Source: Bdellovibrionota bacterium
GTDB taxonomy: Bacteria; Bdellovibrionota_C; UBA2361; JBGSMV01
Reading direction: 5' to 3'
DNA length: 64,000 nucleotides
Assembly (NCBI GenBank): GCA_041739995.1
Contig: JBGSMV010000024.1
Coordinates: forward strand, 1 to 64,000
Shown: positions 8,199 to 17,045 of the stretch, piece by piece
Position numbering within the stretch: the stretch's first letter is position 1
How the letters are laid out: the number at the start of each line of letters is the position of its first letter
Program-made: the position numbers and the translations under genes
The notes under the pieces: model-generated
What the model was told of the DNA's origin: nothing
Database searches by the model: none
The model's input: the letters and a program-made list of their open reading frames with translations, nothing else

Positions 8199-9545
8199 AT
8201 GCAGGCCGTTGAACAGGAAATGAATGGGGCTAGAAACACGATGAAAAGCGATCCCGTCGATTACAAAGTAAAAGATATCAGTCTCGCTGATTGGGGCCGC
8301 AAAGAGATCACCATTGCTGAAAAAGAAATGCCGGGCCTCATGGCACTTCGCCGCGAGTATGGTGCCAAAAAGCCACTGAAGGGCGCCCGTATCGCTGGCT
8401 GTCTGCACATGACCATTCAAACCGCCGTGCTGATTGAAACCCTAGTAGAACTAGGTGCCGAAGTGCGTTGGTCAAGCTGCAACATCTACTCCACTCAAGA
8501 TCATGCCGCAGCCGCCATCGCTAAAACCGGCGTGCCTGTGTTTGCCTGGAAGGGTGAGACAAACGAAGAGTATGACTGGTGCATCGAACAGACCATTATG
8601 TTCGGCGACAAGGGCCCCAACATGCTACTCGACGATGGTGGTGACCTGACCAAGATCGTGCACGAGAAGTATTCAGAAATGCTTCCCGAGATTCATGGCG
8701 TTTCTGAAGAAACGACTACGGGAGTGATGCGCCTGATTGAGATGTCAAAAGCAGGCAAGCTCAAAGTGGCAGCCTTCAACGTCAACGACTCGGTCACCAA
8801 GTCTAAGTTCGATAATATGTACGGCTGCCGAGAGTCGCTTGCGGACGGCTTAAAGCGTGCAACGGACGTGATGATTGCGGGCAAATGCGTGGTCATTGCC
8901 GGATTTGGAGATGTCGGTAAGGGCTGCGCTCAGTCCATGCGCGGGTTTGGCGCACGCGTGCTCATCACCGAAATCGATCCGATTATTGCACTGCAAGCTG
9001 CAATGGAAGGGTTTGACGTGGTGTTGATGGAAGATGCTGCCAAAGTCGCAGACATTTTCGTCACCGCCACAGGCAACCTCAATATCATCAATGAGAAGCA
9101 CTTCAAGGTTATGAAGGATCAAGCGATTCTTTGTAACATTGGGCACTTTGACAACGAGATTGACATTGCTTGGCTTGAGAAGAACCGCAAAGAGGAAATC
9201 AGCATCAAGCCGCAGGTCGACAAGTTCGTTATGTCGGATGGACGAGAACTTATTGTGCTTGCACGTGGACGCTTGGTTAATCTTGGCTGCGCTAACGGGC
9301 ATCCATCCTTTGTGATGTCCACCTCGTTCTCGAACCAGGTAATTGCTCAGATTGAGCTCTTTACCAATCAGGGCAAGTACAAGCGCGGCGAGGTATTTGT
9401 GTTACCGAAACTACTCGACGAAAAAGTCGCTAGATTGCATCTCGACAAGCTTGGCGTGAAGCTCACCGTGCTTTCTGATGAGCAAGCAAAATACCTTGGT
9501 GTTAGCAAGACCGGGCCATTTAAGCCTGAGAGCTATCGATACTAG
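8199..9545 (+). CDS. ahcY: Adenosylhomocysteinase
   Basis: [73 protein letters not shown]. Confidence 0.98.
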
Positions 9546-9557
9546 ACCCAACAAGGC

Positions 9558-9595
9558 AGGCCCTCGTCTTTGATTCGCTTCAAGGATGAGGGCCT
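9558..9595. terminator. Hairpin after ahcY, possible terminator
   Basis: AGGCCCTCGTCTTTGA-ttcgct-TCAAGGATGAGGGCCT, a 16-bp stem with G-U pairs immediately after the stop codon. No long U-tract. Confidence 0.5.
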
Positions 9596-9654
9596 CATAG
9601 CGCCCGCTGGCAGGCTTTCAGGGATAGTTGGCTGGTTATTGCAGCAACTGCAAC

Positions 9655-9935
9655 GCAAGCGCTCAAGAAGCGAATTCTGCTGTGTAAGCACACCTGTCGC
9701 GATGCCAATGAGTGAAATGCCGTCACTCACGTTGCGAATCGCAGCGCCATAGTGTCGCGCATCGGTTCTTAATGAATCAGCAATTGCCAAGCCCGCCGCA
9801 TCATCTGAAGCGCGATTAATCCTCTGCCCAGAAGAGAGGCGTTCGAACGTACGCGACAATCCATCACTGGCTTCCGTGAGTCGTCGCTGCGCCGCCAGTG
9901 CGGGTTTTGTTGCTACCAATCGTGATTGACGCCAC
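9655..9935 (-). pseudogene. fliC: Flagellin N-terminal fragment, frameshifted and truncated
   Basis: GGAGGA RBS, then GTG at 9935 gives MASITIGSNK. One extra base in AACAAAACCC follows, then PALAAQRRL...LSSGQRINRASDDAAGLAIA...IRNVSDGIS...LERLR, after which similarity ends. Confidence 0.85.
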
Positions 9936-10387
9936 GCGGCAACATTCCTCCGAATAGGTCCCAAAATCCTTGCGACCTACACCACTCGAGCCACCTCCCC
10001 ATGAGGTGGCACACCCTATCTATCGAAGTCGTCGTAGGAGGAGTTCCGATAAAGAGGAATCGGGTTGGCTGGAAGAAATGCGAAGTTCCACTTCGAGAAA
10101 CTCGGATATAAATACTCTACTTTCGATCCAAAGGAGGGATTTTCAGCAGCTCAAAAATTTTATCCATTGCGGGGTACCGCACGAGCCGTTACCTTCTGCT
10201 CGTGACGGATCCGCAGCTCGCACATGTTGGAGCAGCGCTTTTTGATCGCTTAAATGTTTCCCACAAGAAACAACACGCGCGCAGAAGGAGTAGAGGGAGG
10301 GGGCATGTGGTACGTGCTCACTCCCTTTTTTCTGGCTTTTTTCCTGGCTTTTTTCCTGGCTTTTGGGGGTACTCGCCCTTAAGGAGA

Positions 10388-11926
10388 CTATCGAGCAAGC
10401 GCGTAGCGCCTTAAGGTCTCAGCAATCGATTTGACGGTGGGTCTCTCATTACCCACCTCAGTTCCAGTCTGGGCTATCTTCTCAAACTCACCCTGCAACT
10501 TTTCCAACGCAACCTTCCCATCTAGCCGCTCAAGGACCCAACGCTTGTCATCTGAAAGCACCACCGACTGATGCAAGAAATTCGGCACCTCCATGCGCTC
10601 CTTAACCAAAAGTTGTGCAATAGGATGCGCCCGCACACTTCCAGTATTGGCCGCCGGCACAGGGTTTTCTGTTCGAACCAGCGCCACACCCTTCGCCACA
10701 GCGCCAACGAGACCTGAGAGCACTCTCACCTCAAAATCTGCAGGCGCCGCTGGGCCTAAGCGAAGCTTCACCTTACTAGCCAACTGCTTAACGCTGCACA
10801 TGCTTGGCCAAACCTCTTGAAGCTCCAGTAAAACAGCCGCACCTATAGGATCCTTGATTTTAAGCCCCAAGCGAGAACTCACCGAAGAGAATTCGAGTTC
10901 CTTATCAAGCTCGGCGCCACGCAAAGATCGCTGTCCCGCATCGGCAGCCCGCAACGCAAATGGCGAAGTAATGAAAATTTGTTCGACTGCCGGTAAATCG
11001 ACCTTAGCGAGAGGAGTCAAAGCTTGGTGACAAACAAGCGCCTGCCGAAACCCTCGCCCCACGATAAAATCAAGATACTGCTCGAGGCGCTCGCGACTGT
11101 TCACCGCTAAAGCAAGAACTTGCTTTTGAGCATCTGGGGAAAGGCCATCAAGCTGCAAAGTCCCCGCACTGGCATCTGCCACATACTTGAGACCCTGAGC
11201 TCCGGCCTCTTCCACAAATTGACTAAAAAGCAGCGGATGATTCTCTTGCTCAAGATAATCATGAAGAAAGTGTGAAACGTCTTGTCTGCGCACATTCTCA
11301 AGCTCTGCCCCCAGCAGCTTTGAATAGAGAGAGTCCTTTTCTGGTTGCACGGCAGTAAGAAAGTTCAAAAAACTCGCTGCGCCTTTTACGCGCTGCTCCG
11401 GATCTGTCAGGTTCTGGGTGTGAAACCGCATGGCCTCCCGCGCGATGAGTTTGAGATGGGCGCCCGGAAAGACGTTAAACCCAAGGTAAGCAAACCCGGT
11501 CGGCTTAAGTAGGCCTGCAATGCCCCGCATGACCTGTTCACGCACCTTTGGCGAAACCCACGATATCAATCCGTGTGCGATGATATAATCAAAAGGTTCA
11601 AGCTTCGGAGTACTTCGAGCAAGGTCGTGCTCAAGGAACTGACAGTTGCGAAGCCCCGCACGCGTCGACAGCTCCTTCGCAAGAGAGATCTGAACGGCGC
11701 TCGAATCTATGCCCACAAAGGTCGCACGCGGACACGAATACGCCATAGGAACGAGGTTTCCCCCAATTCCACAGCCAAGCTCTAGTACTCGCGCCGTCGC
11801 TACTACAGGAGCGGTAAAACCACTTATAAGGGCAATCGCCCCGATATGTGCTGGGTGCGAAAACCCATAACACCGCGAGCGGTATGGAACGTTCTCAAGA
11901 TTTTGCTTTAGTGCTTCGCCTGCCAC
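10388..11926 (-). CDS. Class I SAM-dependent methyltransferase with methyltransferase regulatory domain
   Basis: VLELGCGIGGN, FDYIIAHGLISWV, HDYLEQENHP, EQYLDFIVGRGFRQALVCH. Confidence 0.88.
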   Translation of the reverse strand: MAGEALKQNLENVPYRSRCYGFSHPAHIGAIALISGFTAPVVATARVLELGCGIGGNLVPMAYSCPRATFVGIDSSAVQISLAKELSTRAGLRNCQFLEHDLARSTPKLEPFDYIIAHGLISWVSPKVREQVMRGIAGLLKPTGFAYLGFNVFPGAHLKLIAREAMRFHTQNLTDPEQRVKGAASFLNFLTAVQPEKDSLYSKLLGAELENVRRQDVSHFLHDYLEQENHPLLFSQFVEEAGAQGLKYVADASAGTLQLDGLSPDAQKQVLALAVNSRERLEQYLDFIVGRGFRQALVCHQALTPLAKVDLPAVEQIFITSPFALRAADAGQRSLRGAELDKELEFSSVSSRLGLKIKDPIGAAVLLELQEVWPSMCSVKQLASKVKLRLGPAAPADFEVRVLSGLVGAVAKGVALVRTENPVPAANTGSVRAHPIAQLLVKERMEVPNFLHQSVVLSDDKRWVLERLDGKVALEKLQGEFEKIAQTGTEVGNERPTVKSIAETLRRYALAR

Positions 11927-11966
11927 TTTCTATTCATGCCTCAAACAACGTCAGAAACACAACGTA

Positions 11967-12109
11967 CTAGTGTCCTGAGTTAAGAGTTCGATGAATAATT
12001 CTCGCCGAGCTCGCTGCTCTCTTTGTGAATGTATTTAAGGAATTACACAATGAGCTCCGCGAGAACAACGAGAAAAATACTTTAATGAACTTCTGACTCA
12101 GCACACTAG
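11967..12109 (-). repeat. MITE family A (IS630-like ends), copy 1
   Basis: CTAGTGTCCTGAGT ... ACTCAGCACACTAG (13/14 inverted match) with CTAG at both ends. Homologous to 21531-21665, 24373-24515 and 50890-51008. Confidence 0.88.
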
Positions 12110-12276
12110 ACGAGAGGCTGACGTTTGCACCCCACGGAACTGGCAAGACAAGTGGGTCGGTTGTTTCTGGCAACGTGCTTTGGTCTGGAATCTTCACAGA
12201 GTGTGTGGATAAAAACTCGCCTCTCACAGGGGTCGTCTACGAATGAAAACTTTGAAAAATGAAAAAAGTAGAAGGC

Positions 12277-12312
12277 AAAAAAAAGCGCGGCGCAGGTTGC
12301 CCTGCGTCGCGC
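12277..12312 (-). terminator. Intrinsic terminator of the candidate large ncRNA
   Basis: Minus strand GCGCGACGCAGG-GCAA-CCTGCGCCGCGC-TTTTTTTT: 12-bp stem with one mismatch, GNRA loop and U8. Confidence 0.85.
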
Positions 12313-13225
12313 ACATGTCGGAACCATGAATCTTGTGACGGACCCACCATTCTAACTTTCGCCGCGGACGTTGACTCCGTGATGTCCAAAGATCCGAAGA
12401 CCTAAGAACCAGGAGCATATCGACCCGAAGCGGGAGGAGGAACGACCGTGAGTTGCCCACCTTTCAAGATCGGGTGACGTGCGGGGACGAGGATTAACCC
12501 ATCCTTCCGGCCTTCTACGCTCACCTAACCCCAGTGGCCGCTATGAACGACCTCAGAAGTACAAAACACACGATGCAAGTTTCCTAAAGCTTGATCGCCC
12601 CGAAGCAAAGAGTTCTCACCGACAAGTCGGATCGCCCTGCCCTACCTCGACTATAACCACCACTTCCACCGAGCCTTCGTTTACGGGTTACCCCTTATTG
12701 AAGTCTCACATTCGAGGGAAGATACCTCGAACATCTATTCCCCAAAGAGACACTCTCTTCTCTCCAGAGGTTCCACCTGCCTTTCGACAAGCGACGCGAT
12801 TCCCATGGGGTCACGCGCTCTCCCGAATCATGCTGACCTTCGAGAGGAACTGCATCTTTATGAGAGACCACCTTTCGGCTCTCCCACCAGTAGGACACGT
12901 CTCGGTGTCCAGAGTTTCCAGCATTCGACTTCTCGTTTCCGAGAAGGTCATCATTTCTGACAACACGCTCTTTCGAGCGCCCCACCCTTTCAGGCGCCTC
13001 TTCCTCTTCAGGAAGTACTGTCGATGCCAGTGCGAGTCCCGATCAAGACCCGCACCGAGCTAGCGGTTCCATCAACTATAAATAATTATGGCCACCAGCT
13101 TTTCGTCCGACGACAAGTGGCTGTTTCATCCCCTTGTCTGTTGAAACCAGTCTCTTGCGAGCTTCGGTTCCAAGGACGACGTATGTAAGTGCTGAGTTAC
13201 AAGCAATTTTGCTTTCCTCAACCTG
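12277..13225 (-). ncRNA. Candidate large (~950 nt) structured non-coding RNA, family unassigned
   Basis: No credible protein ORF. About nine GNRA-capped hairpins and a C(UUCG)G hairpin, all reading correctly only on the minus strand. Multi-way junctions and long-range helices (12845-12856 with 12572-12585; 13065-13070 with 12320-12325). Bounded by a promoter-like site and a terminator. Confidence 0.72.
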
Positions 13226-13231
13226 ATTGTT

Positions 13232-13260
13232 GATGTACGCCCGCGCGCGAAAGAACTCAA
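13232..13260 (-). promoter_or_regulatory. Possible sigma70-type promoter for the ncRNA
   Basis: TTGAGT-17 bp-TACATC on the minus strand; the -10 is imperfect. The predicted start (~13225) falls just before the first hairpin (13222). Confidence 0.35.
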
Positions 13261-14430
13261 GGAAACTCGAACGACTTGCACACGAGCATAAAGGAAATTT
13301 TTTCCTGCGGGATTGCCCGAGTTATCAACAGTGTTGAAAAGTTTGCTAGCTTGCGGGAAACAAGCCACACTAACTTTAAGAGATTTTTAGTTGAGCATCT
13401 TTAGTCAATATAAGTAATTGCAAACGCTGGTTGATTGTCACTCTCTTCGCTTGCCAAGCTCGGAAATAGCTTGTTCCTCTGCCTCCCATACATGCTAGTT
13501 ATTGAAGGCCATTACATTTTGGGGTGGGTAGAGGAACGTGTAACGCACTCTTCGAGGACGCGTCATTGATAGACGCGCCTAGTGGATTGCGACGACCGAG
13601 CATAATGGTTTTTGCTTGTGAATCCCTTTCCTCACGGAGCCCTTTTTACTTCACTCCTCCCTCCTCCTGAGTCGGCGATGGGGTCTGTTTCGCAGTGATC
13701 GCCTGCTGTCCCGTCACACGAGTGACGAGCAAGCTGTGGCGGGAGCGGAACAGCCCCATCGTCGGCCGGGATATTAGGAAACTTCTCGACAAGTTTGGAT
13801 CTCTCTCCCGGAGAAGCCCTTGCACTTCCCCTGCGACGGCTTCTCACGTGCACACCGCGCTCGACGAGTATTCGAGCGCGGTGCTTTTTCCTGTATTGGT
13901 TGGAGTAAGTAGCTCGCAGACTGACCCTATCTGCCGGCGAACCCTGGTCGAGTAGCTCTCGACCAGGGTTGCCTCTTACGTAGGATTTCCCAGGAAAATC
14001 ACCCTTCTTTTCACGGTTCTCCGTGCGCAGGGGGGGTGCGCGACCACACCACAGCGGTTTGAGTCTTGATGCTTTGAACTGTCCCGGATACTGCCCTTTA
14101 GTCTCCGCGTCCGTCACACCCCGAAAACCTCTGCACACAGGTGCTGAGTCAATCGAGCTGGGACGCTCCGCGTGGAGGCACCTGTGCACTGGGCATCCCG
14201 ATGGTCTTCGTGTCGAAACTCATTAGTTCTTTGAGCTACTCTCTCCGCAAGGTGCCTTAGGCCTTGGAGCTCATTAAGGATCCGCTCGGTCGCGCATCCT
14301 CCCCTTTTCTCTTCCTCTTTTTGCTTCGCGATATGCAACTTTGAGCCTTTGGTGACTACTTCACGTGACACCTAGCTCGATGCACACGTTTCCTCGCGTT
14401 GAACATATGCTCTATGAGGCTAAAACGAGA

Positions 14431-16969: not shown

Positions 16970-17045
<76 letters not shown>

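Follow-up and report, generated by a model that had tools for sequence, protein, structure and literature searches.

The stretch of DNA analysed here, called the window below, comprises 64,000 nucleotides (nt) of contig JBGSMV010000024.1 from the genome (3.8 Mb; G000) of a Bdellovibrionota bacterium, an organism not in culture that is related to the predatory Bdellovibrio. Between positions 12277 and 13225, on the minus strand, it carries what is very probably a real gene for a structured non-coding RNA (ncRNA), present as a single copy in the genome. The flanking genes encode an S-adenosylmethionine (SAM) methyltransferase, an ATP-binding cassette (ABC) ATPase, ApaG, S-adenosylhomocysteine (AdoHcy) hydrolase and ComEC. 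These are ordinary and not phage-like surroundings, in agreement with an earlier interpretation made from the letters alone (the sequence-only reading), which had placed a stand-alone large structured RNA among housekeeping genes with no visible prophage.

12277..13225, minus strand: structured ncRNA gene of about 949 nt (fold z-score -7.82; 293-pair consensus structure; 894-nt contig from an RNA library)

The structured-RNA reading is favoured by the absence of an Rfam match, strand-specific folding, compensatory base changes, the lack of a conserved open reading frame (ORF) and presence in RNA libraries. Three distinct RNA sequences were compared: that of G000, that of a second genome of the same genus (G001) and that of a metagenome contig (L011), the two homologues being 984 and 968 nt long. 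BLASTN over 41 related genomes gave matches in G000 and G001 only, in three collinear patches. A 20-base pattern from the best-conserved block was then scanned in public genome contigs (2 loci) and metagenome contigs (5 loci). One of the genome loci is the contig of G001 itself (L008); in the other, from a Sphaerochaeta metagenome-assembled genome (MAG), the pattern occurs by chance. Among the metagenome loci, L011, L012 and L013 represent the third homologue lineage, a fourth is again the Sphaerochaeta contig and the fifth is a chance match. Two covariance models were built, R1 from the 5' domain and R2 from the 3' core of the RNA; R1, at the other end of the RNA from the pattern, confirmed L011-L013 (140.2 bits each). 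L011 and L012 are identical except at 3 of 1020 positions. The Sphaerochaeta contig (L007/L009) and L010 were rejected as homologues, having no R1 match and unrelated sequence. Identity is 59% between G000 and G001, 59% between G000 and L011, and 84% between G001 and L011.

The ORFs listed at the locus are overlapping short frames and one frame of 194 amino acids (aa) on the opposite strand, which matched no Pfam family and is absent from both homologues. The longest open frames share neither position nor strand among the three homologues, and thus no ORF is conserved. Between G001 and L011 the mismatches fall on the codon phases as 59/42/54, with no codon periodicity, and the insertions or deletions measure 1, 17, 1, 1, 1 and 1 nt, with no in-frame pattern. 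The view that no credible protein lies here was therefore borne out by the lack of a conserved ORF, of codon periodicity and of in-frame indels.

Folding was assessed against 20 dinucleotide shuffles per strand and sequence. The minus strand of G000 reaches a minimum free energy (MFE) of -382.7 kcal/mol with a z-score of -7.82, against -2.80 for the plus strand. The signal is strand-specific in the other homologues as well, with z-scores of -6.71 vs -0.58 for the other strand in G001 and -5.77 vs -3.42 in L011. RNAalifold on the three aligned sequences gave -276.6 kcal/mol, compared with -168.2 +/- 7.0 in 20 column shuffles that preserve gap and conservation classes (z-score -15.5) and with -170.5 for the reverse complement; the structure conservation index was 0.71 vs 0.58. 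About 60% of the RNA bases lie within about 40 helices, which are grouped in multi-hairpin domains. The pairwise and three-way alignments consist of invariant blocks between hairpins whose stems have diverged yet remain complementary.

In a consensus structure derived from the same three sequences that were used for the count, 74 of 293 pairs are changed on both sides, compared with 31.7 +/- 4.1 in shuffles, and 0 of 500 shuffles reach 74. Scored over 864 cells, standard pairs occupy 93.8%, vs 86.3 +/- 0.7 in shuffles. Shifting the partners by 1-3 columns lowers the paired share of cells to 40.6-44.4% and the number of pairs changed on both sides to 6-16. The best supported helices are 10, 26, 16, 8 and 15, with 6, 5, 5, 4 and 4 double changes, respectively; each is at least 90% paired and all are local hairpins. 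The main conserved parts of the RNA are as follows.

13141..13173, minus strand: helix 6, a 13-pair hairpin capped by GCAA (GUAA in G001); 10 pairs invariant, 2 double-changed, 100% paired
13028..13057, minus strand: helix 10, a 12-pair hairpin with a 6-nt loop holding the invariant palindrome GAUC; 6 of 12 pairs double-changed, 100% paired
12852..13027, minus strand: central multi-hairpin domain closed by helix 11 (13027-13023 with 12856-12852)
12708..12734, minus strand: helix 26, a hairpin; 5 of 8 pairs double-changed, 100% paired
12528..12555, minus strand: longest near-invariant block, 28 nt, with one C/U (Y) position and otherwise identical in the three homologues
12317..12356, minus strand: helix 39, a 3' hairpin with the invariant 8-nt loop CGUCACAA; 15 pairs, of which 8 vary on one side and 1 on both, 95.6% paired

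The loop of helix 10 reads UGAUCG, AGAUCA and CGAUCA in the three homologues. The central domain contains GNRA-capped hairpins at 12983-12996, 12964-12981, 12948-12962 and 12861-12886, the last of which is an invariant GAGCC-GNRA-GGU-GG-UCUC hairpin with a 2-nt bulge; helices 14, 15 and 16 of this domain have 2, 4 and 5 pairs changed on both sides. The 28-nt block includes helix 33, an invariant 7-pair hairpin with a 3-nt loop, whose lack of variation neither supports nor contradicts the pairing. Helix 39 is followed by the word CGACAUGUGCG (12320-12310). Besides the GAUC of helix 10, the palindrome ACAUGU at 12313-12318 is invariant.

Hairpins capped by GNRA loops number 12, 14 and 12 on the RNA strand of the three homologues and 3, 2 and 1 on the opposite strand, compared with a mean of 2.3 and a maximum of 6-8 in mononucleotide shuffles. 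Six loops are GNRA in all three homologues and vary within the family, e.g. GAAA/GAGA/GCGA at 12873-12876; such variation is typical behaviour of loops that make tertiary contacts. Many helices keep their GNRA cap where the stem beneath has covaried. The sequence-only reading had already taken strand-specific GNRA loops as its leading sign, and the loop counts and the difference between the strands (-7.82 vs -2.80) confirm it. The folding and covariation checks that it named likewise turned out in favour of a structured RNA (strand-specific z-scores in all three homologues, and compensatory changes above shuffles). Its individual structural claims fared unevenly, although the hairpins themselves can be read in the sequence at the positions that it gave. 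Seven of its eight GNRA hairpins form in the MFE fold of G000 and six of those also in the three-sequence consensus; UUCUCG-GAAA-CGAGAA (12930-12945) is a hairpin in the G000 fold only, and GGC-GAAA-GUU (about 12355-12364) forms no hairpin in either. The UUCG hairpin at 12390-12403 folds in G000 and sits in an insertion found only there. The three G-U-rich stems at 13028-13057, 12893-12910 and 12708-12734 correspond to consensus helices 10, 17 and 26, which have 6, 0 and 5 double-changed pairs. The proposed closure of a multi-way junction (13015-13022 with 12959-12966) is absent from the consensus, as are the long-range helices 12845-12856 with 12572-12585 and 13065-13070 with 12320-12325; the bases of both long-range helices pair instead in helices 11 and 8, with covariation support.

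The sequence is also present in environmental RNA preparations. The stretch occurs, wholly or in part, in 20 listed public sequencing runs, of which 15, from 7 studies, are RNA libraries; four libraries of just 56-61 million letters contain at least 79% of the sampled words. One DNA run (X1) and three RNA runs (X3, X9 and X12) were mapped on 11700-13800. X3 gave a single contig, all 894 nt of which lie at 12320-13213, inside the RNA unit, with 2 differences. X9 gave pieces within 12503-13187, and X12 an exact piece of 289 nt together with a 762-nt contig at 12455-13196 that has 60 differences and represents a relative of the RNA. The RNA runs show no depth beyond the bins 12268-13261, and the DNA run covers 29 of 30 bins; uncovered parts are not evidence. 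The upper ends of the RNA contigs differ (13187, 13196 and 13213), and the loose ends of X12 (13196) and X9 (12503) read like Illumina adapters, which we take to be ends of fragments and not necessarily of the RNA. These contigs from three RNA libraries, all within 12320-13213 and of unreadable strand, are good evidence that RNA preparations contain the sequence as a unit of roughly this length. Since strand, ends and level are unreadable from contigs and DNA may be carried over, the claim is one of presence, and the cover is a weak hint as to the boundaries of the unit. The stand-alone minus-strand RNA first proposed is supported by folding, covariation and the absence of an Rfam match, and we infer the strand of the transcript.

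The two ends of the unit are marked by the following features.

13325..13337, minus strand: upstream palindrome TCAACA-CT-GTTGA, aligned in the three loci, about 95 nt before the -35 hexamer
13232..13260, minus strand: promoter-like site, TTGAGT (13260-13255), 17-nt spacer, TACATC (13237-13232), with hexamer positions conserved and a putative function
12277..12312, minus strand: intrinsic terminator, an 11-pair G+C-rich stem with a GCAA loop and U8, seen in the sequence and in the G000 MFE fold

In G001 and L011 the promoter-like site reads TTGAAA-N17-TACCTA, and the pattern common to the three loci is TTGA / TAC.T.; the position of the site first picked out in the window is therefore conserved in three homologues. 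About 230 nt upstream of the RNA are also conserved among the three loci. The palindrome within this region reads TCCACA-NT-GTGGA in the homologues, both half-sites having changed together in G000, and it is a possible operator. The palindrome (13322-13337; L004 at about 1330-1350; L011 at about 1222-1242) resembles paired DnaA boxes, with TTATCAACA at 13322-13330, a perfect TTATCCACA in the G001 palindrome and another perfect TTATCCACA just downstream of the RNA at 12204-12212. A replication origin was considered and rejected: near-matches to TTATCCACA number 10 in the window vs 9.0 +/- 2.6 in shuffles, and there is no switch of GC skew here. At the other end, the terminator stem spans 12312-12285 and the U8 tract 12284-12277. 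The terminator claimed from the letters is plain in the sequence and in the MFE fold, and a consensus terminator scan did not list it. Its outer stem and U8 are conserved in G001 and L011, which carry a loop insertion of about 50 nt.

Rfam 15 was scanned at gathering scores over the whole window, where the sole match was a tRNA at 16970-17042, and then with permissive filters at E <= 10 over 12100-13400, where the only matches were three at chance level (a nematode snoRNA, a CRISPR repeat and an archaeal snoRNA). The two homologous loci gave 30 weak matches, mostly microRNA (miRNA)-like ones on long inverted repeats outside the RNA, and no large-RNA family. Models of GOLLD, ROOL, OLE, HEARO and introns gave no match even at E <= 10 on G000, G001 or L011. 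Of the two options first offered, a divergent GOLLD/ROOL member or a new class, it is the new class that these searches support. The statement that the locus bears no signature of RNase P, transfer-messenger RNA (tmRNA), group II introns or ribosomal RNA is in line with the lack of Rfam matches. An aberrant copy of RNase P or tmRNA was rejected: the RNA is single copy, and the canonical genes for RNase P (G000:C39, 257.9 bits) and tmRNA (G000:C41, 155.4 bits) lie elsewhere in the genome. The 6S RNA model found nothing in G000, G001, G003 and G004, with or without the large RNA. Of 14 known genomes, its control was positive in only 5, and this family may simply have a 6S RNA that has diverged beyond the reach of the Rfam model. 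Full-text literature searching, at the level of listings, found no description of such an RNA in Bdellovibrionota.

By its size (949-984 nt, against the more than 500 nt expected of the kind), its lack of coding potential and its many helices with compensatory changes, the RNA falls within the known descriptive kind of large ornate bacterial ncRNA, and it is a good candidate for a new class of this kind. We are confident that the class is new to Rfam and to the literature searched. With nearly the same confidence, we regard the locus as an independently transcribed ncRNA gene of about 950 nt belonging to an undescribed class, which in the data covered is confined to one genus-level lineage of uncultured Bdellovibrionota.

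Each of the three loci has a second conserved element, designated el2, downstream of the RNA; the distance is about 2 kb in G000, compared with about 250 nt in G001 and L011.

10150..10345, strand unassigned: conserved element el2, containing ATCCGTCACGAG (10199-10210) and CAACATGTGCG (10219-10229)

It occupies 2470-2680 of L008 and 2420-2670 of L011. Its two words of 11-12 nt are the same as words at the 3' end of the RNA (12332-12343, the loop region, and 12310-12320), on the same strand and in swapped order. The two words stand close together at just these two places in the 3.8-Mb genome of G000, and, among the 91 genomes of the order, the el2 pattern is found in the 2 that carry the RNA and in no others. 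In G000 the methyltransferase gene and a dispersed repeat separate the two elements. El2 has no Rfam match and no conserved secondary structure on either strand (z-scores of -0.68/+0.2 for the core and +0.41/-0.29 for the whole). Pairing between the RNA and el2 was rejected, the RNAduplex energies being no better than in 15 shuffles in either orientation in three genomes. A short conserved ORF in el2 was likewise rejected, as the shared word does not keep its frame across the three loci. From the common words el2 would appear to be linked to the RNA, and our best guess is that el2 and the RNA 3' end share a site for a binding protein.

Several further features were noted around el2. A terminator-like hairpin with a U-run lies within it on the plus strand, opposite to the RNA, at 10301-10319. 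Beside this hairpin, right after the stop codon of the methyltransferase gene, are three tandem copies of an 11-nt unit (AAAAAGCCAGG-like; 10330-10365, minus strand). An ORF of 140 aa with a TTG start (9542-9964, minus strand) has a match to flagellin (Pfam Flagellin_N, E 9e-22) that is limited to the N-terminal helical region, and is possibly a truncated or fragmentary flagellin gene. The dispersed repeat of about 145 nt, at 11967-12110, has about 97 further matches in G000 of about 100-150 nt and 65-95% identity (BLASTN of 11900-12280); the copies are spread over about 40 contigs in either orientation, including three at other places on the present contig, and have no Rfam match. The DNA run X1 covers this repeat to a depth of 215, with as many as 17 contigs and numerous loose ends. 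The repeat looks like an element of the miniature inverted-repeat transposable element (MITE) or repetitive extragenic palindromic (REP) type, and an 86-aa ORF at 11967-12227 is probably an artefact of it. Long near-perfect inverted repeats stand between the terminator and el2 at L004:2482-2556 and L011:2313-2368 and are absent from G000; they differ in sequence and draw spurious Rfam matches to miRNA precursors.

As for function, we think that the RNA is not an antisense regulator, a leader or an mRNA. By analogy with large RNAs studied elsewhere, it may fold as a compact body in which GNRA loops dock into helices to give a defined three-dimensional object. Such an object could act in trans as a scaffold, either as the core of a ribonucleoprotein or as an RNA-only assembly like those of OLE, ROOL and GOLLD. 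The near-invariant stretches (the 28-nt block at 12528-12555, the GAUC loop, and the CGUCACAA loop with the word ACAUGUG) would be likely contact or active surfaces, and the palindromes GAUC and ACAUGU provide a lead towards possible self-association. A scaffold or assembly role, as opposed to catalysis or regulation, has in our judgement a little less than an even chance. We consider it rather unlikely, as a more far-reaching proposal, that the RNA is the founding member of a new ornate class of about 950-1000 nt in predatory-type Bdellovibrionota, abundant in nature, which folds on the scale of a ribosomal subunit through its GNRA loops, associates with itself through GAUC and/or the 3' ACAUGU, and works with el2, e.g. 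by way of a common binding protein or docking partner. If true, it would be a fourth, phylogenetically unrelated example beside OLE, ROOL and GOLLD, and the first from a Gram-negative predator lineage.

A number of points weigh against the main reading, an independently transcribed RNA gene of an undescribed class with a possible scaffold or assembly role. The mechanism of scaffolding or assembly is drawn by analogy. Only three distinct sequences were available, two of them 84% alike, so that the covariation rests on few independent events, and the structure that was tested came from the very sequences used to test it. Among the helices, the long-range ones (1-4, 31 and 32) are tentative. In the relative found in X12, 33 substitutions are listed, and 31 further differences and changes near the contig ends are unlisted, so partner changes may be hidden; the listed substitutions touch 25 consensus pairs, of which 11 stay paired (two by double change) and 14 break. 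The two double changes are 13054/13031 in helix 10 and 13024/12855 in helix 11, both from U-A to C-G, the latter in a helix that is invariant in the three sequences. Most of the breaks fall in the long-range helices 2 and 3 and in helix 29, and they weaken the case for helices 2 and 3; the other helices are not judged by them. Contigs from RNA libraries show no strand, ends or level, and DNA can occur in such libraries. The putative promoter fails a sigma-70 consensus scan, which gave 0 sites over 9900-13700. The distribution is narrow: R1 and R2 alike, searched with the stricter filters used for any set of more than 40 genomes, found the RNA in 2 of 124 genomes of the phylum and 2 of 91 of the order. 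Finally, no protein neighbour is conserved among the three loci, so none points to function. The ORFs beside the RNA in G001 and L011 had no tblastn match in the G000 genome, and the 185-aa ORF upstream of the RNA in G000 was not found in G001-G004.

The alternative that survives best is a large ribozyme, in which the invariant block and the junctions would form an active site acting on the RNA itself or in trans. Size, multi-domain helices and many GNRA loops are established traits of large ribozymes such as group I and group II introns and RNase P, and the long invariant stretches, including the 28-nt block, as well as the invariant bulged GNRA hairpin at 12861-12886, fit this view. Against it, no ribozyme or intron model matched at E <= 10, there are no flanking exons and no intron-encoded protein, and the mapped contigs, which could hardly show them, contain no joints or processing sites. 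We consider a ribozyme unlikely.

It is also conceivable that the RNA is part of a mobile or recombining module, the shared words being recombination or protein-binding sites that bracket a variable cargo, namely the methyltransferase gene and dispersed repeat in G000 and an inverted repeat alone in G001 and L011. The co-occurrence of the words in all three loci and at just two places in G000 is in keeping with this idea, as are the wholly different DNA between them and the unshared flanking protein genes. However, the surroundings contain no gene for an integrase, transposase or reverse transcriptase, the genome has just one copy of the RNA, and the same orientation with swapped order of the words fits neither direct nor inverted att-type repeats; the module would in addition leave about 900 nt of conserved structure unexplained. 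This makes it an improbable account.

Less probable still is that the RNA belongs to one of the known large-RNA families (GOLLD, ROOL, OLE, HEARO/omega RNA or group I/II introns) as a branch too divergent for the Rfam models to reach. The scale and ornate look are similar, and Rfam models built from limited taxa can miss distant branches. However, no such model matched at E <= 10 with permissive filters on three homologues, the RNA is not beside tRNAs in a prophage and has no TnpB/IscB or reverse-transcriptase neighbour, the host is not a member of Bacillota, and three conserved patterns gave 0 matches in viral contigs. A cis-acting leader, a 3' untranslated region (UTR), an antisense transcript of a neighbour or a decayed protein gene is largely refuted and deserves hardly any weight. 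In its favour are the 194-aa frame open on the opposite strand and the position of the RNA gene 350 nt upstream of the methyltransferase gene on the same strand. Against it, the unit ends in a terminator of its own, neighbouring genes are unconserved among the three loci, the structure signal is on the minus strand only, the antisense frame is absent from the homologues and has no Pfam family, and the locus shows no codon periodicity.

The structured RNA of an undescribed class is thus the reading that we carry forward. Non-ribosomal bacterial RNAs of such size and complexity are very rare, and each of the known classes (RNase P, group I/II introns, OLE, GOLLD, ROOL and HEARO) widened the view of what RNA is able to do; most recently, some were reported to build protein-free cages (PMC12286853). 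The novelty here lies in a lack of detectable relation to the known large classes and in a phylum without a known large ncRNA of its own, and the support comes in three lines: conserved structure, compensatory change and presence in RNA libraries. The system is tractable, as a defined sequence of about 950 nt can be made by in vitro transcription and requires no culture of the organism. The RNA and el2 have two words in common and are equally restricted in distribution, an unexplained regularity that may offer a handle on function.

Among the known systems, HEARO, an omega RNA of the IS605 type, is expected to have an adjacent ORF of the TnpB/IscB type; no such domain was found among the 11 flanking ORFs scanned, and the HEARO model gave no match. 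Group I/II introns likewise gave no model match, and the locus interrupts no gene, carries no reverse-transcriptase ORF and has its own start region and terminator. The likeness to RNase P RNA and group II introns is one of design, a multi-domain build held by GNRA contacts with invariant unpaired or bulged segments. The present RNA differs from group II introns in lacking a canonically sized domain V, exons and an intron-encoded protein.

OLE is an RNA of about 600 nt from Bacillota that sits beside the oap genes for its partners. It shares with the present RNA a stand-alone, non-coding, many-helix build with long, highly conserved stretches, and it works as a folded body with partners and not as a base-pairing regulator, the mode of action to which we liken the RNA here. 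OLE is reported to be exceptionally highly expressed (PMC3413148) and to form an RNA-only dimer (PMC12286853). The RNA described here differs from OLE in being about 350 nt longer, in belonging to another phylum, in matching no Rfam model and in its flanks, which differ among the loci and contain no conserved adjacent gene for a partner protein.

GOLLD, of about 800 nt, and ROOL are typically found in phages or prophages, often beside tRNA genes. The flanks of the present RNA contain no prophage genes, the nearest tRNA is 3.7 kb away, and neither viral contigs nor the models yielded a match; the likeness lies in comparable size and dense hairpins. In GOLLD and ROOL, A-minor and kissing-loop contacts build large RNA-only cages (PMC12286853). 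By analogy, the conserved GNRA loops and the palindromic GAUC loop of the Bdellovibrionota RNA might be elements of the kind that make such contacts.

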